Shown: positions 360 to 57,190 of the stretch, piece after piece
How the letters are laid out: every line of letters starts with the position of its first letter
Numbering within the stretch: position 1 is the first letter of the stretch
The notes under the pieces: generated by a model
What the model was told of the DNA's origin: nothing
Seen by the model: the letters and a program-made list of their open reading frames with translations, nothing else
Databases searched by the model: none
From: a virus
Lineage: Duplodnaviria > Heunggongvirae > Uroviricota > Caudoviricetes
Length of the DNA: 64,000 bases
Direction: 5' to 3' (one strand)
IMG/VR virus record: IMGVR_UViG_3300031993_000024
Location: 1-64,000 of that record
Made by a program: the position numbers and the translations under genes

Positions 360-1121
360 TTATATACCTTTTAGGTCACCAGATTGCTTCATAGCAACTG
401 CCATATTGCCTTGCAGCAAGCCTATAAGGTTTATTTTTGAGAATGTACCGCTTACGAATGTCTTCATAATGTCATACATTTTATCTACTGTTTCCTTGTC
501 AGGATTTACCGTCAAGAAGATTGAATCTTCAGGGACAAGGCTTTCAAGTGCAGCTATATTGAAGCCTTCAAGCTCGGAAAGCAAAGACTTGAAGCAAGCG
601 ACATACAGCTCAGTAGGAACACCTGTCTTCCGGCTGCGTACTTTTATTTCAGCGATAAGCCAATCCATATTGTCAGCAGATATATTGTTTTCCCTTGCGA
701 AATCAAGTATCTCTGTCCTGAACTCACTTATATCCGGTACGATTGTTTTCCTGATTATAGAAGGAGTTTTTGGGTCGCTCAACTTGTTAAACAATGAATC
801 AAGGTTTTCATATACATTCTTATTGCCTATGGTCTTCGCAAATTCAAGTTCATCAATGCTGTTGCCTTCATCCAAAAACGGACTTTCCTTTACAATACGG
901 GAAAGCTTTACGACTCTGTTCTGTCCCTTAGAAAATGTACCGTTCCTTCCAAGAAGAATTGTTTCTGCCTCTTCTTCACTTGAAGCAATGCAGGTATCCT
1001 TAAAGTCGCTTATAATATCTCCCTTATTGTCATAAACAACAAAATGACCGGTATACGTTTCTTGCGAATCGAAGTCACTTGACTCTTTGATAAACTGCTT
1101 GTAAGTCTTTAACTTTTCCAT
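360..1121 (-). CDS. hypothetical protein with CTS-like N-terminal leader MEKLKTYKQFIKES
   Basis: 253-aa ORF. Its first 14 residues match the leaders of the 36263-44702 cluster; the body is unrelated to them. Confidence 0.75.
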   Translation of the reverse strand: MEKLKTYKQFIKESSDFDSQETYTGHFVVYDNKGDIISDFKDTCIASSEEEAETILLGRNGTFSKGQNRVVKLSRIVKESPFLDEGNSIDELEFAKTIGNKNVYENLDSLFNKLSDPKTPSIIRKTIVPDISEFRTEILDFARENNISADNMDWLIAEIKVRSRKTGVPTELYVACFKSLLSELEGFNIAALESLVPEDSIFLTVNPDKETVDKMYDIMKTFVSGTFSKINLIGLLQGNMAVAMKQSGDLKGI

Positions 1122-18158: not shown

Positions 18159-18201
18159 TTTTCAAAACAATAAATATATAAAACTTAAATTAGATAGGCA
18201 A

Positions 18202-23341: not shown

Positions 23342-23721
23342 TGGGATTAAGGGATTTCAACATATTGCCTCCTAATTATTTGGTGACTGAAGATAATTCA
23401 GCTGTTGAGATTAACTCCGAAATCGCGGAGTTAATCCAACAGATGAATGTTCTGTTTTTTACAAATAGAGGTGAATTGCTGAATATGCCTGATTACGGAT
23501 GCAATCTGAGCGACTACCTGTTTAAGACAAATTATAATGAAGATATGGTCGAGGCTGACATCAACGACCAGATGAAACGTTTTGTAAATACGACTGAAAA
23601 TGTCACATACGAACTGTCGGTAAAATTTCTGACATGGGAAAAAGAAGTGTGTATGGAAGTGGATGTCGACATCAAAAACCTGAAAACTAATGAAGGTACG
23701 GTGATGAGGTATTACGCATAA
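23341..23721 (+). CDS. gp25-like baseplate wedge protein (GPW/gp25 family)
   Basis: EIAELIQQMNVLFFTNRGELLNMPDYGCNLSDYLFK aligns to T4 gp25 SIKNSLLGIITTRKGSRPFDPEFGCDLSDQLFE. Confidence 0.8.
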   Translation: MGLRDFNILPPNYLVTEDNSAVEINSEIAELIQQMNVLFFTNRGELLNMPDYGCNLSDYLFKTNYNEDMVEADINDQMKRFVNTTENVTYELSVKFLTWEKEVCMEVDVDIKNLKTNEGTVMRYYA

Positions 23722-23774
23722 TTTTTTAGGAATTTTCAAAAAAAATAAATATATAAGAAAAACTTATAATAACA

Positions 23775-25730
23775 ATGGAAAATAAGAAATATATCGTTGA
23801 GAGTTTAAGTGACGGTGTCTGCTCAAGTTCTGCGGACGGCGGCGATATTGTTCTTGAAGGATGCTTCACGACATTTAACGTGAAGAATCGTAACAACAGG
23901 ATATATGACTCTAAGAATTTCCTTGAGAAGCTTGATGCTCTTACGGAAAAGATTAAGAATCATGACCTTCTCGGTGAGCTTGAACATCCCGCTAATATGA
24001 GGTATGTGTCTTATCAGAACGTTTCTCACATAGTTGAAAGTCTAAGCTATGACCAAAAGACAGATTCTATAAAGGGTCGTATCAAATTATTAAATACTCC
24101 TTCAGGAAGAATCGCGAAGACTCTTATAGAAAATAAAGTGCCTCTTCATATATCTTCAAGGGCTATCGGTACTTTGACACCTGACAATCATGTCGTTGTC
24201 GAAGAACTTATAACTTATGACCTTGTTGCTGAACCAGGTTTTGAGAATGCAGTTCTCCATGCAGTTAACGAAAGCAAGGGCGCGGGTTCTGACGCTCTTA
24301 TAAATGCCGTTAATGCTTTGAGTTCACAGAAGAATGCCAAAATGAAGAGCCGTGTAATACTCGAGTCTTTCGATGGCGCCGATTTGTACGAATTGCAGGA
24401 TGAAGGTCAGAAAGAACCTGAAAGCGGAAATGAAAAACCGAAAATAGACGGCAAGTCTATTATAGGTGAATTCCGTAAGGCGCTCGGTATGAATCCTGGC
24501 AAAATGGACATAACAGTCGACAGCGATATGGGTATCTGTTCTGTTGAATCAAATTCTGATACAGCAATAGTTAATTTCGTAAACGACCATGTTGAGGTTG
24601 AATTCGGAAAGAATGTAACAGGTGAATTCACAGGCATAATCAATAACGCTGTTGAACAATGTCTGAACAATATTGGTGCGAACATTACTGACGGTCCAAC
24701 CGTACAAGACGGAAAGACATATTTCTTTGTAAGTGGAATCAACTTTAATAATTATTATATGGAACAGAAGTTAGGCAACCCTCAAGATGTCGTAACAAGA
24801 CGCGACATGGATAAATACACTAAGTATTTGTCTGAATACTTGAATAAATTGAAAAAAGGTGTCGTTACAAGCGAAGACGTAGAAAAGTATACTGCATATC
24901 TTTCTGAACATCTTGCAGCTATGAATAAAAACGTAGTTACAAGTGATGCTATGGAAAAATATACAGGCTATCTGTCAGAACATCTTAAAAAGATGAATAA
25001 AGACGTTGTCACATCAAAGGATATGGAACGTTATACAGCATATTTGTCTGAACATCTTGAAAAGAACACGGTAACGGCTGAAATGCTTGAAGGATATACA
25101 AAATATCTTTCTGAAAGTTTCGATAAGGTTCTTCAGAAGAACAAGCAGCTTAATGAAAAAATTGAGATGCTTCAGAAGTATACAGAATATATCTCTGAGT
25201 CTCAGACTAAAATCAACAAAAAGCTTAGCGGTAAAATGCAGAGCATAGTTGAAGCTGCTGACAAATCTATAGAAGACATCAAGATGATGGTTGAAGGTAA
25301 ACAGCGCAGTACTGAAGACACTCAACTTCAAAACCTTGTGGAATCTGTAAATTCTATTGCTTCGTCTATTAAGGATACAAACAACAAGATGGAACAACAG
25401 AGTCAAGCCATAAATGAACAGAAATCTGTTACAGAGGCAGAAAAACTTATTCAATTTATGCCTGACTACTTGAAAGAATCTTGGAGCGCTCTTTCTGACA
25501 ACCGTAAGAAAGAAATCCTTAACGAAAGCAAATTGTATATTATCGGCAGTGTAGACGCAGCTGTTCGTTTCTGGAAGACAAGGAATCTTACGGAAAGCGT
25601 AAGCAGTCAAGATACGAAAAAATATCTTTCGGAATCTTTGAGGAATCAGAACAGGAACGTCCGTAATGAAGGAAAAGTACAGGCTTCTGTCGCTGAAGAG
25701 ATAAAAAGACGTTTGAAATACGGATTCTAA
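23775..25730 (+). CDS. prohead core protease (T4 gp21 family) fused to a coiled-coil scaffold-like C-terminal half
   Basis: N-terminal region (EGCFTTFNVKNRNNRIYD...GELEHP...HISSRAIG) fits the gp21/U9 serine protease His and Ser motifs. The C-terminal ~400 aa is helical and repetitive. 651 aa. Confidence 0.7.
   Translation: MENKKYIVESLSDGVCSSSADGGDIVLEGCFTTFNVKNRNNRIYDSKNFLEKLDALTEKIKNHDLLGELEHPANMRYVSYQNVSHIVESLSYDQKTDSIKGRIKLLNTPSGRIAKTLIENKVPLHISSRAIGTLTPDNHVVVEELITYDLVAEPGFENAVLHAVNESKGAGSDALINAVNALSSQKNAKMKSRVILESFDGADLYELQDEGQKEPESGNEKPKIDGKSIIGEFRKALGMNPGKMDITVDSDMGICSVESNSDTAIVNFVNDHVEVEFGKNVTGEFTGIINNAVEQCLNNIGANITDGPTVQDGKTYFFVSGINFNNYYMEQKLGNPQDVVTRRDMDKYTKYLSEYLNKLKKGVVTSEDVEKYTAYLSEHLAAMNKNVVTSDAMEKYTGYLSEHLKKMNKDVVTSKDMERYTAYLSEHLEKNTVTAEMLEGYTKYLSESFDKVLQKNKQLNEKIEMLQKYTEYISESQTKINKKLSGKMQSIVEAADKSIEDIKMMVEGKQRSTEDTQLQNLVESVNSIASSIKDTNNKMEQQSQAINEQKSVTEAEKLIQFMPDYLKESWSALSDNRKKEILNESKLYIIGSVDAAVRFWKTRNLTESVSSQDTKKYLSESLRNQNRNVRNEGKVQASVAEEIKRRLKYGF
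24804..25125 (+). repeat. about 4.5 in-frame tandem repeats (~72 nt, 24 aa: KYTxYLSEHLxxMNKxVVTSxDME) inside the scaffold region
   Basis: KYTKYLSEYLNKLKKGVVTSEDVE, then KYTAYLSEHLAAMNKNVVTSDAME, KYTGYLSEHLKKMNKDVVTSKDME, RYTAYLSEHLEKNTVTAEMLEG, YTKYLSESF. Confidence 0.8.
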
Positions 25731-25750
25731 AATGAGGAAATTTAGAAAAA

Positions 25751-25758
25751 TATAAATA
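25751..25758 (+). promoter_or_regulatory. TATAAATA late-type promoter upstream of the MCP gene
   Basis: Exact TATAAATA, about 80 nt before the ATG. Confidence 0.35.
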
Positions 25759-25838
25759 TAAAAGCTAACGCTTCGGAGCAAGAAAGAAAGGAACTTATTC
25801 CGGTGTTGTGAATTGTTTCAAAAGTGTAACTTAAAAAT

Positions 25839-38753: not shown

Positions 38754-38798
38754 AAGAACAGAATTAAAACATTTTTATCTAAAAACTTGAGAAAGATT

Positions 38799-40706
38799 AT
38801 GGAACACTTAAAGACATTCAAACAATTTTATGAATCAAGGGAAGAGGACCTTGAACTGTACAATAAGGCGAAAGACGCATACTATAATGGCAACCCCATT
38901 ATGGGCGACGCTGAATTTGATGAACTCGAAAGAAAGCTTGGTCTTGAAAATCAGGGCTATATAGGTACACATCATTCTGATAATTATACCGTAAAACATC
39001 CGATAAAAATGGGAAGCCTTTCGAAAATACAGATAAAAGAAGGTTCAGACGGTCAAACCCATTTTGACTCATATATCGATACCCTTAACAAGTATTTCCA
39101 AAATGTTCCGGACGATGGAATCATTGAGGTAACTCCAAAATTCGATGGATGTTCTTTTGAGGTTGTGTTCGATGACGAAGGAAATGTTGAAGGAATATCG
39201 ACAAGAGGCGATGGTGAATACGGTACGGATGTAAGCCACTGGCTGAGTCCTTATGTAGACGAAATACCTTACAAGGAATTCCTGCAGAAAGGCAAGAAGC
39301 TCGTGGTAAGGGGAGAAGCTCTTATAAGCTTTAATGACTTTAACGCAGGCTATCAGGATAAATTCGCGAATACAAGGGCGTTTGTTGCTGGCATGTTCGG
39401 TCAGAAATGGGACGGAAAACAGGAACAGCTTGATATAAGGAAAGATTTGTCAATAGTTGTGTATGACTTCAGGCTTGTATCTCCGTCAGGCTCATATCAA
39501 TGGGTTGACTATAATACGGTTCCTGGCTATGACGTATGCGCATACAATGTGCTTACCTTTAAGAAATCAGAACTCAGTCCTATGGAATTCGCGAGGATTT
39601 ACGAAGAAATGGAGAAAGTTCGTAAGGATTACAAATTCCCTCTTGACGGTTTCGTGTTGAAACCAGAAGTGAAATACCGCAAGACGGAAGATGTTCAGCG
39701 TCCGAGCGACTGCGTCGCAATCAAATACAAACCAAGTATCCTCGAGACAGAAATCACGGAGATAGAATGGAATGTTGGAAAGACAGGAGAACTTTTCCCG
39801 AAGGCTGTGTTCAAGACAATAAAGATGGACGGAAAGAACATCAACAAGGCGTCATTGCATAACTACGGATATGTTAAGGACAATAACGTCGGAGTTGGTT
39901 CCATCATTAAGATTTCGCTTGCCGGCGATATAATTCCTTTCGTGTATGAAATCGTAAGAGACGGAGGCGACAATATGGCTCCTACCGAGAATGTGACCGT
40001 TAAAGGACCTCATCTTATGATTGACTTGTCTGCTGAAGAAAAAGTTGTCATAAAGGTAATAGCAGGCGCTGAGGCGATAAACATCAGAAATTTCAAAGAG
40101 GCGACGATACGTAAGATTATGCCTGAGTTCTTTACAAGCGAGGATGTAAAAATCGAGAATGTCCTTGACTTTATGAAAGATGAATCAATCGCTTTTATGA
40201 AGGAACGTTTCGGAACAGGGACATCGATAATGAATATCGTAAACGCTCTTACTGAAAGACGTAAGACTTTGACGCTTAATGAAATCATACTTGCCCTGCA
40301 GTTCCGTCTGTGCGGTAAGGTCGCTGCCGATGTCTGTGCCAAGTTTATCAAGGGCGACAAGTCAAATCATCTCATAGGCGTGCCTGGTGAAGTCAAGAGA
40401 TGGCTTCTTGATGAGAATTCTCAGGAATACCAGACTATTATGGGGTATGCGAATTTGTTCAAAGTTAATATGGCTCCGGAAGCGGCCGCTGCGTCGACGG
40501 CGATACCTGTGATTATGACAGGAAGTCCGAAAGAATTCGGATATGTTACCAAGGCAGCTTTCCTTGCCGCACATCCTGAATATATAGAGACATCTGACTG
40601 GAAGCAATGTAAAATCCTGTTTACGGACGATATGTCTTCGACATCCGGAAAAATGAAGAAAGCTGCCGCTCTTGGAGTTGAGGTGAAAACATACGGGGAA
40701 GCATAA
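38799..40706 (+). CDS. ligA: NAD-dependent DNA ligase (LigA-like domains Ia, NTase, OB, HhH, BRCT) preceded by CTS-like leader MEHLKTFKQFYES
   Basis: YYNGNPIMGDAEFDEL fits domain Ia. KMGSLSKI fits LigA PMLSLDNAF. TPKFDGCSF is the KxDG motif; STRGDGEYGTDVS fits ATRGDGTTGEDIT; FANTRAFVAGMFGQ fits motif IV NPRNAAAGSLRQ. LAGDIIPFVYEIV marks the OB end. HhH-like and BRCT-like regions (AIPVIMTGS...LGVEV) are present. Confidence 0.85.
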   Translation: MEHLKTFKQFYESREEDLELYNKAKDAYYNGNPIMGDAEFDELERKLGLENQGYIGTHHSDNYTVKHPIKMGSLSKIQIKEGSDGQTHFDSYIDTLNKYFQNVPDDGIIEVTPKFDGCSFEVVFDDEGNVEGISTRGDGEYGTDVSHWLSPYVDEIPYKEFLQKGKKLVVRGEALISFNDFNAGYQDKFANTRAFVAGMFGQKWDGKQEQLDIRKDLSIVVYDFRLVSPSGSYQWVDYNTVPGYDVCAYNVLTFKKSELSPMEFARIYEEMEKVRKDYKFPLDGFVLKPEVKYRKTEDVQRPSDCVAIKYKPSILETEITEIEWNVGKTGELFPKAVFKTIKMDGKNINKASLHNYGYVKDNNVGVGSIIKISLAGDIIPFVYEIVRDGGDNMAPTENVTVKGPHLMIDLSAEEKVVIKVIAGAEAINIRNFKEATIRKIMPEFFTSEDVKIENVLDFMKDESIAFMKERFGTGTSIMNIVNALTERRKTLTLNEIILALQFRLCGKVAADVCAKFIKGDKSNHLIGVPGEVKRWLLDENSQEYQTIMGYANLFKVNMAPEAAAASTAIPVIMTGSPKEFGYVTKAAFLAAHPEYIETSDWKQCKILFTDDMSSTSGKMKKAAALGVEVKTYGEA

Positions 40707-40724
40707 CATAAAATTTATAAGGAC

Positions 40725-41420
40725 ATGAAAAAATTAAAGACATATAATCAGTTCCTTAAAGAAGGAAAAGGCATACGTAAAGAATATGACAGCAGCCTTG
40801 AAAATATGATGGATGAATACGGAAGTGATTCCTATGGTTCTGTCATAACAAAAGAGGTCGAGGAACTGCAGACAATGCTGAAGGACAAAAATCTTTTGGA
40901 GCCTGTCGATAAAGTTGTGTCTGTAATGTTATACCCTGAACAAGATTGGCATCCGATATATGCGATGATACGTCTTGAAAACGGCTTGCAGTACGTAACG
41001 ACAATTATAAATGTAGCCGATAAAAGCAAACTAAGACTGATGTCTGACGAGATGTATAAGATATTGCTTGAATGGCTTCAGAATGTCATAGATGAAGACA
41101 AGAAGAAAAAATCAAGTATGAAGTCAATGCCTGAAATCAAGGATTTGCTGCCTGAATATCTGAATATCGTCAGTAGATTTGTTGAAATGTTTAATATAGG
41201 CAGAGCCAAGTATGAAGCTAAGATATATAAGACAGACTCGATTCTTATTACATATAACGGAAGATATAATGGGGTTCTCATATTCTCCAAAACTGAGTAT
41301 GCCTATAATATCGAAGTACATGCTGTTACTGGCGGATTTTATGATACTGATTATTTGTATGATGAATCCAGCAAAGTTATTAAAGATGCCGTTAATTACA
41401 TTTTAAAACAACAACTATGA
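40725..41420 (+). CDS. hypothetical protein with CTS-like leader MKKLKTYNQFLKEG
   Basis: 231-aa ORF. Confidence 0.7.
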   Translation: MKKLKTYNQFLKEGKGIRKEYDSSLENMMDEYGSDSYGSVITKEVEELQTMLKDKNLLEPVDKVVSVMLYPEQDWHPIYAMIRLENGLQYVTTIINVADKSKLRLMSDEMYKILLEWLQNVIDEDKKKKSSMKSMPEIKDLLPEYLNIVSRFVEMFNIGRAKYEAKIYKTDSILITYNGRYNGVLIFSKTEYAYNIEVHAVTGGFYDTDYLYDESSKVIKDAVNYILKQQL

Positions 41421-42136
41421 TTATGAAAATAAATGACAGAAATATGAAAGATATTCTCGGCGAGCTTAGTAAGGTCGTATCTGATGCGATAGGTCTTGAG
41501 AATATCGTTGGTTACTATACGAAGAAAACATACAGCTTCAAGTCAGATGTCCTGACGATTACTTTGTCTTATCACGAAGACCCTCAACGGGAATATTATG
41601 ATTTGAAGCAAATCAAGTCTGACGCGTATAATGCCGCTCAGAGTATATTTGGAGTATTTGCTCTGCAAGATTATAAAGAGCAAGCTGATGTTACGAAAGA
41701 TGAGATGTACGTCAATATCATCTTCAAGTTTACTGTCGACGAACTTGAAAAGGTGAAAGTCGTATATGACAGGCTTTTTACCGAGGGTAGCTCAAAGCTA
41801 CTTACTTACAGCCAGTTTATCAATGAGAGTTCTAAGAATGGTGTAGAGCTTGGTAACTATGAATTCGCGTATAGATGCGATGAAGAGGAGAATGCCGACG
41901 AGCTTATGGAAATAACTCATTATGACGAATTTGCGAATAATGACTACAGCATACAGGATGATTATTTCGGTTCTACAGTTAAAATCGTCAATACCGATGA
42001 GATGCTTCCACATTTATTCGGCAACAAGCCTGAAGAGTCAGAGATAGAATACTGTGCTTTGAATACCGTTTTGAACATAGCATTCATACTTGATAAATCT
42101 GGCTATCATTGGATTTATGAACTACTCACAAACTAA
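41417..42136 (+). CDS. hypothetical protein (no leader); its 3' end overlaps the tnpB stop by 15 nt
   Basis: 239-aa ORF; the last codons may be IS-derived. Confidence 0.55.
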   Translation: MIMKINDRNMKDILGELSKVVSDAIGLENIVGYYTKKTYSFKSDVLTITLSYHEDPQREYYDLKQIKSDAYNAAQSIFGVFALQDYKEQADVTKDEMYVNIIFKFTVDELEKVKVVYDRLFTEGSSKLLTYSQFINESSKNGVELGNYEFAYRCDEEENADELMEITHYDEFANNDYSIQDDYFGSTVKIVNTDEMLPHLFGNKPEESEIEYCALNTVLNIAFILDKSGYHWIYELLTN

Positions 42137-43318
42137 AGATTTGTGGGCTTCAGGCTTCGCAGACAATTGCTTGCAAGCAAGTCTTACATCGTCTCCACCT
42201 GTGTAATCGACAGTCCCTGCCGATAGAGTTGTTAATCCTTCTCTAAGGATATTGATAGCAGCATTTAAGTCCCTATTGTGGTGTTTACCACATTTAGGAC
42301 AAGTCCATTCTCGTACACACAAGTCTTTGATAGATTGATTGATATATCCACAGTCACTACAAGTCTGTGAGCTTGGAAAATATCTGTTAATCTTCACTAA
42401 AGTCTTGTCTTCCCTTTCACACTTGTATTCAAGATAGTTTACGAATGTTCCCCAACTGACATCAGCAATATGCTTTGCAAGTTTATGGTTCTTAATCATT
42501 CCTTTTACGTTAAGGTTCTCACAACAGATTATGTCATAGTTTCTGACAAGTTCTGTTGATACCTTGTGTAATACATCATTTCTTGAATTTGAAATTTTCT
42601 TATGAATCTTGACAACTTTTCTTCTTTGGTTTTCAAAAGAACGGCTGTCTTTTTGCTTACGAGAAAGATGCCTCTGTGCTTTACTTAATTTTCTTTCATA
42701 TTTCTTTGTATATCTATGATTTTTGTAAACTTTTCCATCTGACGTAATAACAAAGTCTTTTAATCCTAAATCAATTCCGACAGATTTATTAGATTTTTGT
42801 ATTGGTTCATATAACTGTTCTGTAAGAATAGCAACATAATATTTTCCATCGCAATCTTTAGATACTGTCATAGAACGTACATTCCCTGATATTTCTTGAT
42901 GTTTCTTTATTTTTATATTAGACTTGAATTTTGGTAATGATATAGAATTGCCAACAACAGAACAAAATTGTGGCACTACAAAAGAGTTTCTGTCTTTCCT
43001 TGATTTGAATCTTGGAAACTTCGCATTTCCTCTAAAGAAGTTAAGATATGCAGATTCAAGATGTCTCAAACTATGTTGTAAGGTTTGACTGTTAATCTCA
43101 TTTAACCAGACAAATTCTTCATGCTTCTTTAATAGAGTTAGTTTCTTAGCTTGGTCATAGTAATTATCAGACTTTTGTGTAGCTTTATATTGCTCCATAC
43201 GTTCGTTGAGAAAATAATTATAGACGAAGCGAGTGCATCCAAAATACTTACCTAACAACTCTACTTGTTCCGTATTTGGATACATTCTAAACTTATATGT
43301 CTTATAAATCGTTTTCAC
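42122..43318 (-). CDS. tnpB: TnpB (IS605 OrfB-family RNA-guided nuclease)
   Basis: HTH-like N-terminus, RuvC-I SVGIDLGLKDFV, zinc finger CSDCG...CPKCG, and RuvC-III NRDLNAAINIL. 398 aa. Confidence 0.95.
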   Translation of the reverse strand: MKTIYKTYKFRMYPNTEQVELLGKYFGCTRFVYNYFLNERMEQYKATQKSDNYYDQAKKLTLLKKHEEFVWLNEINSQTLQHSLRHLESAYLNFFRGNAKFPRFKSRKDRNSFVVPQFCSVVGNSISLPKFKSNIKIKKHQEISGNVRSMTVSKDCDGKYYVAILTEQLYEPIQKSNKSVGIDLGLKDFVITSDGKVYKNHRYTKKYERKLSKAQRHLSRKQKDSRSFENQRRKVVKIHKKISNSRNDVLHKVSTELVRNYDIICCENLNVKGMIKNHKLAKHIADVSWGTFVNYLEYKCEREDKTLVKINRYFPSSQTCSDCGYINQSIKDLCVREWTCPKCGKHHNRDLNAAINILREGLTTLSAGTVDYTGGDDVRLACKQLSAKPEAHKSLVCE

Positions 43319-43469
43319 AGTAACTATAACTTTCTATATTTATAAATTTACAAAAAACTTTTATTTTTGTAAAATTATTCTAAATAATTATACTTCAAAA
43401 AACAGGCACAAATATTACTTGAGATGTCATTTAATATTTGTTTGTAAATACAGAAAACAATTATTACAA

Positions 43470-43726
43470 TACAGACCGGATATAGTCGTAAAACAATTGT
43501 TTCAAAAATTTTACAAACTTCTGATTTCGATATTGATGTTATGGAGATAGACAAAGGCAATATACATCTTCTTATATCATATCCACCAAATATTTCAGTC
43601 ACTTCGATTGTAAGAAAACTCAAACAAGATAGTGTCCATTATCTGTGTTTGAATTATTACAACTTTCTTAAAAAAGAATTTTGGAAAGAACATACATTTT
43701 GGAGTGATGGATACTTTGTTCTATAG
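43470..43726 (+). pseudogene. tnpA: TnpA (IS200 Y1 transposase) remnant lacking its N-terminal ~60 aa
   Basis: FDIDVMEIDKGNIHLLISYPPNISVTSIVRKLKQDSVHYL...FWSDGYFV matches the TnpA C-terminal half. The HUH motif is degenerate (NIH); the catalytic Tyr is present. The frame opens only at 43448. Confidence 0.7.
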
Positions 43727-43768
43727 GTAAAGCAAATCAAGATACTATTAGAAAATATATAAAGAATC

Positions 43769-43911
43769 TGGGAAAAAGAAGTGTGTATGGAAGTAGATGT
43801 CGACATAAAAAATCTGAAAACTAATGAAGGTACGGTAATGAGGTATTACGCATAATTTTTTTAGGAATTTTCAAAAAAAATAAATATATAAGAAAAACTT
43901 ATAATAACAAA
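43769..43911 (+). repeat. 142-bp direct repeat of 23634-23775 (gp25-like 3' end plus downstream promoter region), ~96% identical
   Basis: Within the 84-nt coding part there are 4 differences, all synonymous third positions. In the non-coding part there is a single 1-nt indel. The copy's reading frame is closed 3 codons upstream. Confidence 0.85.
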
Positions 43912-43985
43912 GGTTAGTACGATTCATTCCAAAGGCTAAAGACCTTAGGATTTTCTTGCTAAAAATTATATAAAACTGATTACTT

Positions 43986-44702
43986 ATGGGAAAGTTAATG
44001 ACATATAAGCAGTTCATGGAGAATAAAACCATGAAACAAGTTAACGAAGGAGCAGGTGCAGGATATACCATAGAAGGCATTATACGAAATATCAATCTTG
44101 GAGAAAATGCGAAATTCAAGAAAGTAAATGATGATACTTTCATTATAAATGGTGACATCACCTGCAATGTCGAAGTCACTAAGGCTGCATCTTACGAATA
44201 TGGCGGAGATGATAAGATATTTAACGAATATAATGCTGCCGCCAAAATTTCGAATCTGGAAATCCAGGTATATGATATGGACAAGGGCAGTAAAGAAGAG
44301 ATAAAAGAAGACCTTAAACAGGCTGAGTTCAAATTCAAATGCCTTTACGGTGCAGGTTGGGTACATAGCAAGTTTGGAGGCGACTTAAAACTTAGCGATG
44401 TCGATACTAACGACTGGTCTAATTCGCAAATCATAAACGGCGAACTGCAGATAGAAGATGAGAAGCTTTGTAATTTTGTCGATAGAGTGGTACGTGGTGA
44501 TAATACATACACCGCATATACGATAAGATGTAACGGAGACCTTATTGAACAGGAATTCAAGACTGAGAAAGAAGCAATCGAATATGCTAAGAAGAACCTT
44601 GAACCTGGAGAGAATATCTGTAAGATACTTATGGATACCGATTATGAGGACATAGAAGGTGAAATAATCAGCAGAGATTCTAATATAGTGTACGAATTCT
44701 AA
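43986..44702 (+). CDS. hypothetical protein with CTS-like leader MGKLMTYKQFMENK
   Basis: 238-aa ORF preceded by ATTATATAAAA. Confidence 0.7.
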   Translation: MGKLMTYKQFMENKTMKQVNEGAGAGYTIEGIIRNINLGENAKFKKVNDDTFIINGDITCNVEVTKAASYEYGGDDKIFNEYNAAAKISNLEIQVYDMDKGSKEEIKEDLKQAEFKFKCLYGAGWVHSKFGGDLKLSDVDTNDWSNSQIINGELQIEDEKLCNFVDRVVRGDNTYTAYTIRCNGDLIEQEFKTEKEAIEYAKKNLEPGENICKILMDTDYEDIEGEIISRDSNIVYEF

Positions 44703-44727
44703 ATTCCATACTGTATATGAACGGAAG

Positions 44728-44760
44728 GCGTCAGGATTAAATTCTTGACGCTTTCTTTTT
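44728..44760 (+). terminator. rho-independent terminator
   Basis: GGCGTCAGG-attaaatt-CTTGACGC followed by TTTCTTTTT. Confidence 0.55.
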
Positions 44761-44765
44761 CTAAC

Positions 44766-44780
44766 GTTGTTTTTTATATA
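44766..44780 (+). promoter_or_regulatory. GTTGTTTTTTATATA motif (copy 6)
   Basis: Exact motif 21 nt upstream of the ATG at 44801. Confidence 0.4.
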
Positions 44781-44800
44781 AAACTAAAATAGAATATTTA

Positions 44801-45862
44801 ATGAGTAAAGTTTGGATACTTGGAGACACTCATCTTGGATACAAGAATGATGATGAAAGGCATTTACAGAAAATGACGGAATATCTTGAAGCCGTCATAG
44901 ACAAGATTAACAATGAATCTTCTGAAGGAGACATATTTGTCCAGCTTGGCGATTTGCTTGACAGGAGAATGAACGTCGGTACAATCGTGTTGGAAACCGT
45001 CATCAGGCTTTTTAAGAAACTAAAAGTTGACACATATATCATTGTCGGGAATCATGACACCAGGAAAAATGACGAGCACGACATCATATCTACGTCTTTT
45101 CTTGAATACGTCTCACCTAAGATACATATTATAAGAGACATTACGGAAATGAGCATTAGCGGCAAAAAGGCCTTATTCGTGCCGTATTATACTCCAGATG
45201 TCGCGAAAGAGAAACTGCAGAGCTATGAAGGTTCATTCGATTATATGTTTTCACATCTTGATTTCTGCGGTCTGAAAATGAACAAGTATTCAGTATCTGA
45301 CACAAAGCTTATGAAAGAGGATGCGAAAGCTGGTATCATATTCAACGGACATATACACCTTTTCCAAAAGAAAGACAATATAATAAATGTCGGCTCCGCA
45401 TACGAGCTTACCGCTGCGGATGAAGGGAATTCGAAAAACCTTTTGATGCTTGACACTTCGACAAACAAAGTGGCTGCATTCAAAAATAATATGTCGCCGA
45501 GGTTTATAACTGTTCCTTACAACGACATCCAGAACATAAGCAAGTCTGTCCTTGCGAATAACAACATTATTCTTGAGGTCAAATGTTCGGAGATGACTAA
45601 GACCGACCCGCGCCTGATAGCGGAAGTAAACAAAGAAGCTTACAGTATGAGAACTGTCATTACAGGTGGAAAGGTCGTACTCGACAGCGAAAGCGGGAAT
45701 ACAGATACAGATTCCGAAACCATGACCATAGGAAACCAGAATTTTGATGACAAGGTAGACGCTTATATGGCAAACCTTATTGAACAAGACCTGTATTCAA
45801 AACAGGATGTTGAGGTTATAGGCAAGATATTTAAGAAAGTCTATAGCAATGTCGCACATTAG
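44801..45862 (+). CDS. SbcD/Mre11-family recombination nuclease subunit (T4 gp47-like calcineurin-type phosphoesterase)
   Basis: KVWILGDTHLGYK matches gp47 KILNLGDWHLGVK. VQLGDLLDRR...YIIVGNHD matches IQYGDIFDVR...HTIVGNHD. An acidic Ser/Asp-rich region near the C-terminus also matches gp47. Confidence 0.7.
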   Translation: MSKVWILGDTHLGYKNDDERHLQKMTEYLEAVIDKINNESSEGDIFVQLGDLLDRRMNVGTIVLETVIRLFKKLKVDTYIIVGNHDTRKNDEHDIISTSFLEYVSPKIHIIRDITEMSISGKKALFVPYYTPDVAKEKLQSYEGSFDYMFSHLDFCGLKMNKYSVSDTKLMKEDAKAGIIFNGHIHLFQKKDNIINVGSAYELTAADEGNSKNLLMLDTSTNKVAAFKNNMSPRFITVPYNDIQNISKSVLANNNIILEVKCSEMTKTDPRLIAEVNKEAYSMRTVITGGKVVLDSESGNTDTDSETMTIGNQNFDDKVDAYMANLIEQDLYSKQDVEVIGKIFKKVYSNVAH

Positions 45863-46533
45863 ACCTTTATTTTTTTCTTCATGGAATTTGGACCGATAGG
45901 CATGAAAGGTACGCCTGTTGGTCCTTGAGTCGTACCATGGGTATGCTTATTGAAAATATCCATCACTTCATTCGCGGTTATAAGCCTTTCACTTCCGCCG
46001 TTTATGACAACGTTATCCGAATTGATGAGGAGCTTCTTTGAATTTATCTCAATACTGCTTTTATCCATTTTTATGAATGACTTCCCTATTTCTATGGAAA
46101 GGTCTCCATCATTGGACAACACTATCCTTTTGCCGTCCTTACAGGAAGATTCTATAACAAGTCCGGTTTCGTCCGTGTAATAGATTCCAACTGTTGTTCC
46201 TGATTTCAGTTTACGGTACAGTAGCACGTTCGCATCGAGGTAATTCTTATTCTCAAGAAGGTCGGTCTTGACATCTTTATCGACTTTAAGCATACTCTCA
46301 TAGAGATACGTATATTCATTCACTTTATATAATATAACGACATCTCCGACATCAGGAATCGAGAAAGACGACTTATCATTACCTATGAGCCTGACGCACC
46401 ATGGCAGACTGTCGTCATTTATAATATAATCGCCAGATTTATCCTTTTCTTCTTGCTTTGAAAAGATACGACATTTTATTTTTCCTTCATATTCTGGGTC
46501 GAAATTATCGACAACTTTACCTAAAAGTCTCAT
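45859..46533 (-). CDS. possible baseplate spike/hub OB-fold protein (gpV/gp5-like)
   Basis: C-terminal ...VINGGSERLITANEVMDIFNKHTHGTTQGPTGVPFMPIG is reminiscent of spike proteins. It is the only minus-strand gene in the region and overlaps the gp47-like stop by 4 nt. Confidence 0.4.
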   Translation of the reverse strand: MRLLGKVVDNFDPEYEGKIKCRIFSKQEEKDKSGDYIINDDSLPWCVRLIGNDKSSFSIPDVGDVVILYKVNEYTYLYESMLKVDKDVKTDLLENKNYLDANVLLYRKLKSGTTVGIYYTDETGLVIESSCKDGKRIVLSNDGDLSIEIGKSFIKMDKSSIEINSKKLLINSDNVVINGGSERLITANEVMDIFNKHTHGTTQGPTGVPFMPIGPNSMKKKIKV

Positions 46534-56739: not shown

Positions 56740-57187
56740 AAAATTTAAGGACATGAAGAATTTACTACAGAATTTACAGCCGAATGATTATGTAAGCAGC
56801 GGCAAGAGCTGCGGAAACATACCTATACAGGTGAAGGGTGTAAGCGATGACAAAATAGAGTTCAGACACAGTGTAGCCTATAACCGCGATGAAAAGAAAT
56901 GGGAAAGAGTGAAGAGGGATTCCGCGGTGCACCTCAATGATTCAGATGATGATGACATCGAGTACTTTCCTATAACGGAAAAGTTCGTAAGAGACAACTG
57001 TCAGATAGACAGGTTTATGCTTTTCTGCGACGTGATAGTTAACGGGAAGGTACTTGGAACCTTGTCTGACGGCAAGCTGACGACATCGATAGGCTGCGCC
57101 GACATTACAATAAATTATGTTCACGAATTCCAGCATATTCTTCGAGACGTTGGATTTATCCAAGAAGCTGACAATATAAAAATATAA
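56717..57187 (+). CDS. hypothetical protein
   Basis: 156-aa ORF. Confidence 0.55.
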   Translation: MTKIRIIRKFKDMKNLLQNLQPNDYVSSGKSCGNIPIQVKGVSDDKIEFRHSVAYNRDEKKWERVKRDSAVHLNDSDDDDIEYFPITEKFVRDNCQIDRFMLFCDVIVNGKVLGTLSDGKLTTSIGCADITINYVHEFQHILRDVGFIQEADNIKI

Positions 57188-57190
57188 GTT

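Follow-up and report, generated by a model that had tools for sequence, protein, structure and literature searches.

A phage-borne IS605-type element with a decayed transposase gene and a conserved TnpB/omega-RNA module

The 64,000-nt stretch of phage DNA analysed here (positions 1 to 64,000 of IMG/VR record IMGVR_UViG_3300031993_000024; hereafter the window) contains an insertion sequence (IS) of 1853 bp that carries a gene for the RNA-guided nuclease TnpB, together with the remains of a gene for the transposase TnpA. Every sequence-level feature of the IS200/IS605 family that could be tested was found in this element, and we assign it on that basis to the IS605 group of the family, as a non-autonomous derivative in which tnpA is inactivated. 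The parts of the element and its immediate flanks are the following, where L numbers denote related loci used for comparison and ORF an open reading frame.

42117..43969, minus strand: the whole IS605-type element, 1853 bp, with its left end at the high and its right end at the low coordinates.
42122..43318, minus strand: tnpB, 398 aa, GTG start, intact (from Pfam domains and structural homologues).
42117..42227, minus strand: predicted 3′ part of the omega-RNA scaffold, covering the last 35 tnpB codons and ending at the right end; the 5′ end possibly lies further upstream.
42206..42224, minus strand: helix 1 of the predicted omega-RNA, AUCGGCAG-GGA-CUGUCGAU, with 8 pairs, 7 of them compensatory, and 95% of cells paired.
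42169..42178, minus strand: the palindrome GCTTGCAAGC, a predicted short internal omega-RNA hairpin (helix 4).
42125..42147, minus strand: sub-terminal hairpin of the right end, CCCACAAA-TCTTTAG-TTTGTGAG; the conserved tail TAGTTCAT comes next and ends at 42117.
42097..42116, minus strand: predicted guide, AAATCCAATGATAGCCAGAT, the flank directly 3′ of the right end (from its position and by analogy with ISDra2 and ISGst2).
43319..43379: region between the divergent tnpA and tnpB, containing the likely tnpB promoter, with TAAATTTA inside; conserved in L001, L022, L085 and L086.
43380..43768, plus strand: tnpA pseudogene (Y1/HUH transposase) in three reading frames (from Pfam Y1_Tnp and three-frame translation).
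43769..43910, plus strand: 142-bp insertion in the IS, a direct copy of 23635..23776 with 96.5% identity over 142 nt; absent from L022.
43911..43969, minus strand: left end, with the sub-terminal hairpin TCCTAAGG-TCTTTAG-CCTTTGGA at 43928..43950; homologous to the left ends of L022, L024, L014 and others.
43970..43974, minus strand: target or transposon-adjacent motif (TAM) TTTAT (ATAAA on the plus strand).
41417..42136, plus strand: phage ORF beside the element, ending in 20 nt of IS sequence (42117..42136), the right-end boundary lying inside the ORF.

The boundaries of the element were mapped by BLAST against 80 IMG/VR loci encoding TnpB relatives, and on the tnpB 3′ side similarity always ends at 42117/42118. 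In a 9-sequence alignment conservation drops abruptly after TCTTTAG-N7-8-GTAGTTCA plus one base, and the flank past this point is unrelated in each of 25 distinct sequences (24 distinct flanks being readable). Because that last base, which may be T, C or A, does not vary within sub-lineages occupying different flanks, it belongs to the IS, whose right end is therefore at 42117. At the opposite end, similarity to L022 runs to 43768 and resumes at 43910..43964, indicating that the window holds about 142 extra bases and that the true left end lies past 43768. Most of 13 left-end flanks (11 by one tally; one has ATTAT, and L039 and L053 are ambiguous) have the pentanucleotide TTTAT 16–20 nt 5′ of the hairpin, and the sequence upstream of it is unrelated among these 13 distinct contexts; from this conservation of TTTAT beside left-end hairpins we set the left boundary of the element at 43969, with the motif occupying 43970..43974. 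The TAM established by experiment for TnpB2 of ISGst2 is likewise TTTAT, and cleavage by that nuclease is sensitive to TAM mutations (PMC10055086).

Exactly two hairpins with a TCTTTAG loop and a stem of at least 6 bp occur in the window, and they are the two element ends, both on the minus strand. The stems covary in relatives at both ends, extensively so at the right end. The left-end hairpin of the window contains a T.T mismatch and folds at −5.1 kcal/mol (z −0.8), no better than shuffled sequence; that of L022 folds at −11.1 kcal/mol (z −2.9). There are no terminal inverted repeats, the hairpins being sub-terminal as in the IS605 group, and the flanks, TTTAT on one side and AAATCC on the other, show no target-site duplication. 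A scan of the window with a covariance model (described below) and for hairpins found no further right ends or omega-RNAs. A preliminary description of this DNA had recognised an IS200/IS605-family element, an assignment that the sharp right end, the left end at a conserved TTTAT, the TnpB and TnpA domains and the copies in different flanks bear out, and the IS ends for which it suggested a search are present, as TCTTTAG-loop hairpins at both ends with a TTTAT target. The span that it gave, 42100–43768, has to be revised to 42117..43969, since the left-end hairpin and TTTAT lie beyond its upper limit. The opposite possibility that it raised, an ordinary conserved pair of phage genes with neither IS ends nor omega-RNA structure, is ruled out by the defined ends and the different flanks of the copies; both ends and RNA structure were found.

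The tnpB reading frame is intact, as had been proposed for 42122..43318. It matches three Pfam domains (HTH_OrfB_IS605, OrfB_IS605 and Cas12f1-like_TNB), its residues 6–396 align with the structures of ISDra2 TnpB (PDB 8H1J, 8BF8/8EXA) at an E value of about 1e-88 (1.5e-88), and both the RuvC triad D183/E267/D350 and the four zinc-finger cysteines C320, C323, C340 and C343 (CxxC..CxxC) are present. Identity to other phage TnpBs is about 44%, with the exception of Parabacteroides phage PF672P2 (61%). The region 43319..43379 likely contains a candidate tnpB promoter, in which TAAATTTA reads TAAATTTG upstream of tnpB in the four closest relatives (L001, L022, L085 and L086); this box resembles the Bacteroidota −7 box TAnnTTTG. 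The same upstream region contains an inverted repeat, TTTACAAA...TTTGTAAA, in the window and in these four relatives, and all five tnpB copies have a GTG start and no Shine-Dalgarno sequence. A weak hint of a Bacteroidales host comes from the TAAATTTG box and the GTG start without a Shine-Dalgarno sequence, taken with the 'Paludibacteraceae' labels that L085 and L086 carry.

The divergently oriented tnpA is a full-length and non-functional pseudogene. Pfam Y1_Tnp matches two fragments of it (E 1.7e-12 and 0.005), and the remnants are colinear with the intact 139-aa TnpA of the more distant relatives L014, L017, L024 and L026. Three-frame translation and nucleotide alignment to L022, the closest tnpA-bearing copy, identify five lesions: the start codon is lost (ATG in L022, CTA at 43380–82), 1 nt is deleted near 43507 and 4 nt near 43713, the HUH motif has become N-I-H (43559–67), and the last codons are replaced by the 142-bp insertion after 43768. 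The codon for the catalytic Tyr is kept (43756–58), in the third frame. Thus five lesions have accumulated in about 390 nt of tnpA versus none in the 1197 nt of tnpB in the same element. The preliminary description was right that TnpA is divergent and non-functional; its view that only the C-terminal half survives does not hold, because the whole length is present in three frames.

A structured RNA of the omega-RNA type is detectable from the sequence of the tnpB 3′ end and the right end. A scan of 41000..45000 against Rfam at E ≤ 1 returned no family, and the two TnpB-RNA models in Rfam cover only a small subset of such RNAs (PMC10055086). RNAalifold, applied to tnpB 3′ ends, predicted 19 pairs (12 compensatory) from 23 sequences and 27 pairs (18 compensatory) from 14 sequences. 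The covariance model built in this analysis, R1 (111 positions, 33 pairs), has one strong match in the window, at 42117..42227 on the minus strand (110.5 bits), and a second at chance level, at 43488..43615 (11.6 bits, E 0.75); it also matches over 50 other loci at their tnpB 3′ ends. Among 55 distinct sequences 92.5% of cells are paired, compared with 64% in column shuffles and 33–47% when the structures are slid by 1–3 columns. Changes on both sides of a pair (compensatory changes) are seen in 29 of the 33 pairs, with a covariation score of 0.61 versus 0.16. The predicted omega-RNA consists of seven helices, and since five of these lie upstream of the terminal hairpin, a right-end DNA hairpin needed by TnpA cannot account for them. 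The stem of helix 4 covaries in relatives (CCAAC/GUUGG, CUUCU/AGAAG, CUUUG/CAAAG) and often closes GNRA-type loops. The synonymous divergence (dS) of the window from L001 and L022 is 1.7–1.9 over codons 2–331 and 0.17–0.29 over codons 332–397, a fall of about 6- to 10-fold exactly where the RNA overlaps tnpB. This class of omega-RNA is not detected by Rfam, and the analysis yields a covariance model for it.

These results bear on several points of the preliminary description. Derivation of the omega-RNA from the tnpB 3′ end and right end stands, as does the presence of the GCTTGCAAGC palindrome in the RNA region, now assigned to helix 4; the placement at 42050–42250 gives way to a scaffold at about 42117..42227, or extending further 5′, and a guide at 42097..42116. 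A check with an omega-RNA covariance model, which it had recommended, comes out empty with Rfam and positive with R1. The predicted guide, whose position follows that in ISDra2 and ISGst2 (PMC13565253, PMC10055086), is unique in the window with up to 3 mismatches allowed. R1 also matches related loci at sites away from the 3′ end of the retrieved tnpB; these could be additional IS copies or right-end/omega-RNA remnants standing alone.

L010, 8385..8486, plus strand: R1 match, not at the 3′ end of the retrieved tnpB.
L053, 5208..5342, minus strand: R1 match, not at the 3′ end of the retrieved tnpB.
L069, 4952..5092, minus strand: R1 match, not at the 3′ end of the retrieved tnpB.
L019, 3310..3376, minus strand: R1 match, not at the 3′ end of the retrieved tnpB.

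By amino acid identity of TnpB the four closest copies are L086 (90%), L001 (88%), L022 (87%) and L085 (86%). Their elements share 81–88% nucleotide identity and lie in unrelated flanks, and no sequence outside the element was found to be shared among the window and these four loci. The neighbours of L086 are head morphogenesis, scaffold and ParB genes, those of L085 encode GroEL, a helicase and an exonuclease, those of L022 a DnaK-like protein and an amidase, and those of L001 very large structural-type proteins; these contexts look like phage DNA. L085 and L086, the two closest matches from bacterial collections, are contigs of 'Paludibacteraceae' metagenome-assembled genomes from rumen-type samples. 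Chaperone genes stand beside tnpB in two of the four loci, one GroEL-like (L085, 4398..5993) and one DnaK/Hsp70-like (L022, 2256..4154). All four copies retain an intact 398-aa tnpB, and the ratio of nonsynonymous to synonymous divergence (dN/dS) in tnpB is 0.055–0.065 in all three pairwise comparisons, including those with L001 and L022. The transposition module has fared otherwise: tnpA of L022 has two frameshifts at positions that differ from those in the window, L001 has kept the left-end hairpin and has no tnpA, and both are absent from L085 and L086. Judged from these sequences, the transposition module is one that has been lost repeatedly and independently, and the nuclease/RNA module one that has been retained under strong constraint.

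The insertion altered the phage gene into which it fell. The 15-nt overlap between tnpB and ORF 41417..42136, already noted in the preliminary description, exists because the insertion replaced the original 3′ end of the ORF. At the predicted empty site, in which 42116 is joined to 43970, ...CATTGGATTT would run directly into ATAAAACTG..., and the product of ORF 41417 would originally have ended in HWIYKTDYLWES and a stop; with the IS it ends, as read from the sequence, in HWIYELLTN and a stop. The predicted original ORF would overlap the start of gene 43986 by 13 nt.

The 142-bp segment within the left end has its source at 23635..23776, which comprises the last 29 codons of a small ORF and the intergenic region that follows, ending on the A of the start codon (ATG) of the head-maturation (prohead) protease gene. 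Four substitutions distinguish the copies, each of them at the third position of a codon in the source ORF. The copy faces gene 43986 and carries AAATAAATATATAAG, close variants of which lie upstream of ORF 18202 and of the major-head-protein gene. The motif (A/C)(A/T)ATAAA(T/A)ATA(T/A)AA(G/A) has 5 matches in the window versus 1.05 expected, several of them about 20–90 nt upstream of the starts of structural genes, and this recurring motif may, by its positions, be a late promoter of the phage.

18168..18182: match to the motif.
23743..23757: match to the motif.
25750..25764: match to the motif.
43878..43892: match to the motif.
57174..57188: match to the motif.

We infer that the 142-bp copy is a putative promoter, probably a late one, that was duplicated to restore expression downstream of the IS. 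Most likely it would supply a promoter for gene 43986 and thereby offset the polar effect of the insertion, in which case the genome that hosts the element has apparently repaired this effect by duplicating its own promoter into the IS end.

The genome in which all this takes place is a 238,631-bp metagenomic contig (ENA ERZ27257203). The window encodes a portal, a tail sheath, a head-maturation protease, a major head protein, a baseplate protein, an SbcD-like nuclease, an NAD-ligase and RtcB, a set of structural and enzyme genes that identifies a large myovirus. Megablast of 40000..46000 against records of cultured and deposited phages gave no match. A tblastn search of phages recovered no relatives of ORF 41417, and scanning IMG/VR for related loci recovered none of ORFs 41417 and 43986. 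A protein search with ORF 41417 returned other assemblies of the same phage and one 964-bp contig from ENA (P0002), whose 193-aa protein is 93% identical to residues ~1–85 of ORF 41417 and then ribosomal-protein-L5-like (PF00673); we discounted this contig as a homologue, most likely being an assembly chimera. Four genes of the window, one of them encoding an NAD-dependent DNA ligase, share an N-terminal leader, (ME/K)KLKTY(K/N)QF(I/L/M)(K/E), which we take to resemble the capsid-targeting sequences of T4. ORF 41417, the gene struck by the IS, does not have this leader.

360..1121, minus strand: leader-bearing gene (shared N-terminus).
38787..40706, plus strand: leader-bearing gene (shared N-terminus).
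40725..41420, plus strand: leader-bearing gene (shared N-terminus).
43986..44702, plus strand: leader-bearing gene (shared N-terminus).

What the constrained module does in this genome can be approached through published TnpB biology. TnpB with an RNA derived from the right end cuts TAM-flanked empty sites and promotes retention of the transposon (PMC10055086), an IS605 element spreads through a plasmid population in a manner that depends on TnpB and not on TnpA (reviewed in PMC13565253), and co-infecting phages have been listed among the possible targets of such 'non-restorative homing' (PMC13565253). By analogy with these findings, we suspect that TnpB and its omega-RNA serve here to cleave the empty site under RNA guidance, that is, in homing or retention, a reading to which we give a probability of roughly 0.5–0.6. 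An IS605-type element would have inserted 3′ of TTTAT at the end of ORF 41417, after which its transposase gene would have decayed beyond use and its left-end hairpin weakened, with TnpB and the omega-RNA preserved. tnpB would be transcribed on the minus strand, and TnpB would take up the 3′ part of the transcript, with about 16–20 nt of flank (AAATCCAATGATAGCC...), as guide RNA. The resulting complex would then cut DNA in which TTTAT is followed by the guide-matching flank, a sequence that would exist only where the locus is unoccupied, such as in a related phage that infects the same cell and has no insertion there. At an occupied locus the right end puts TTCAT, not TTTAT, beside the protospacer, which would protect it from cutting. 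Recombinational repair from the occupied genome would copy the element, and probably neighbouring markers too, into the cut genome, amounting to homing that is independent of TnpA. The idea put forward in the preliminary description, of a selfish homing module or recombination driver, fits both the published biology to which we compare it and the anatomy of the element, in which a dead tnpA stands beside a constrained tnpB and RNA, a defined TAM and a guide that is unique in the window.

Several observations weigh against this reading. The three further assemblies of the phage that were found (~99.7% identity) all have tnpB at this site, the source datasets of the four occupied assemblies being ERZ27257203, SRR8543131, SRR11060108 and JGI 3300037512, and an exact-pattern scan of metagenome and viral collections for the predicted empty site returned nothing; with no empty allele found, there is no polymorphism on which homing could act. 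An exact-pattern scan of the metagenome for the bare flank likewise returned nothing; since it also missed a near-identical JGI contig (L083), both negatives are weak. The purifying selection seen between copies may in part have been exerted in other genomes, with TnpA supplied in trans. TTTAT as a TAM is deduced from the flanks only, and the alignment from which RNA pairs were counted was fitted to the analysis's own covariance model, R1.

A bolder version of empty-site cleavage can be offered only tentatively, as a possibility that we rate below even odds. The phage-borne TnpB/omega-RNA could act as a homing endonuclease, a gene drive, in mixed infections, cutting relatives without the insertion at TTTAT-AAATCCAATG... 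and co-converting the adjacent leader-bearing, putatively capsid-targeted genes, the phage having adapted by copying a late promoter into the left end of the IS. If true, homing and marker exclusion between phages that is RNA-guided and TnpA-independent would have its first natural example here.

The alternative that survives best is that the element is a neutral relic, a dead passenger whose TnpB and RNA are idle here and look intact as a result of earlier selection in other genomes. Such a relic would sit well with an IS that is fixed in all four assemblies, no empty site for it to act on having been found, and with the ongoing decay of tnpA and of the left-end hairpin. We nevertheless consider it unlikely, because decay has not been even: the five disabling lesions of tnpA face none in tnpB or the RNA, the same asymmetry between the two genes recurs in four other lineages with independent contexts, and synonymous sites are constrained specifically over the RNA.

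Less likely still, in our view, is a still-mobile non-autonomous element whose ends are moved by TnpA acting in trans, from the host or from co-resident phages, with TnpB 'restorative' after excision. Both ends and the TTTAT target are recognisable, close copies lie in at least five different flanks, so that the lineage has moved, and intact TnpA genes exist in more distant relatives. However, the left-end hairpin of the window is weakened and is split from the rest of the element by the 142-bp insert, L085 and L086 have lost the left end wholly and kept tnpB, and none of the copies found above 65% nucleotide identity had tnpA intact.

It is improbable that TnpB has been domesticated in the service of the phage, either as a nuclease-dead, TldR-like repressor or as a weapon retargeted at the DNA of the host or a competitor, even though tnpB is kept without tnpA and under strong purifying selection in several phage genomes and the guide reads antisense to ORF 41417 at its 3′ end. 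The intact D-E-D triad and zinc finger, with a full C-terminus, rule out a TldR-like protein. The guide is merely the flank of the insertion, as for any IS605 element, it has no second match in the window, and the architecture of the right end is the same as that of transposon copies. An autonomous, active IS605 that makes TnpA by programmed frameshifting can be set aside as extremely improbable: remnants do span the whole length of TnpA, but two shifts, of −1 and −4 nt, would be needed, the gene has lost its start codon, Asn stands in place of the first His of HUH, the insertion has taken over the C-terminus, and the lesions of L022 differ in kind and place, as random decay predicts.

The identity of the element is already known in kind, IS200/IS605 elements and solo tnpB genes being widespread in phages. 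TnpB homologues occur in 616 deposited phage records and IS elements of this family in Campylobacter T4-like phages (PMC2853527), so that the suggestion that IS elements are unusual in lytic T4-like phages cannot be upheld. What the locus adds is a clean natural example in which tnpA decays repeatedly and tnpB and its RNA stay constrained inside phage genomes. It also provides an exactly definable empty-site target (TTTAT plus guide), which makes the published idea of TnpA-independent homing from phage to phage directly testable, it displays the apparent duplication of a promoter into the IS end, and it yields the covariance model for an omega-RNA class that Rfam misses.

Compared with the IS605 group (IS605 of Helicobacter pylori, ISDra2, ISGst2), the element has the same divergent tnpA (Y1/HUH) and tnpB, the same sub-terminal hairpins at both ends without terminal inverted repeats, insertion 3′ of a pentanucleotide that is identical to the ISGst2 TAM (PMC10055086), a TnpB alignable with that of ISDra2 over its full length, and a guide RNA encoded by the tnpB 3′ end and the right end. 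Unlike members of the group, it has a tnpA pseudogene and a degraded, interrupted left end, its tnpB ORF traverses the entire scaffold and stops 4 nt short of the right end, and it lies in the genome of a large, virulent-type myovirus rather than in a bacterial chromosome. Closer in setting are the IS1341-type, TnpB-only derivatives, which include ISCaje1–3 of the Campylobacter T4-like phages CP220/CPt10, IS200/IS605 elements that are mostly TnpB-only (PMC2853527). Like these, the element resides in a myovirus and keeps TnpB without a working TnpA, and as with ISCaje1–3 related copies occupy different positions in related phages; unlike TnpB-only derivatives, it still shows a tnpA remnant, so that the transition from a two-gene to a TnpB-only element is caught part-way.

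With the free-standing homing endonucleases of T4-like phages (Seg, Mob), and with non-restorative homing (PMC13565253), the locus shares a nuclease gene lying among phage genes, which would cleave alleles without it and enter them through recombinational repair, taking flanking markers along. The literature searched contained no demonstration of homing by any phage-borne TnpB. Recognition here would differ from that by Seg and Mob in relying on an RNA guide and a TAM, not on protein, and discrimination would be by presence or absence of the insert. The duplicated 142-bp segment, finally, recalls the mobile promoter cassettes (PeSL) that Arbiol et al. 2010 reportedly described in T4-type phages, in that a short regulatory segment upstream of one phage gene has been duplicated before another in a plastic region; unlike those cassettes, it exists in two copies only, and the duplicate takes in 29 codons of the ORF upstream and is located within the end of an IS.

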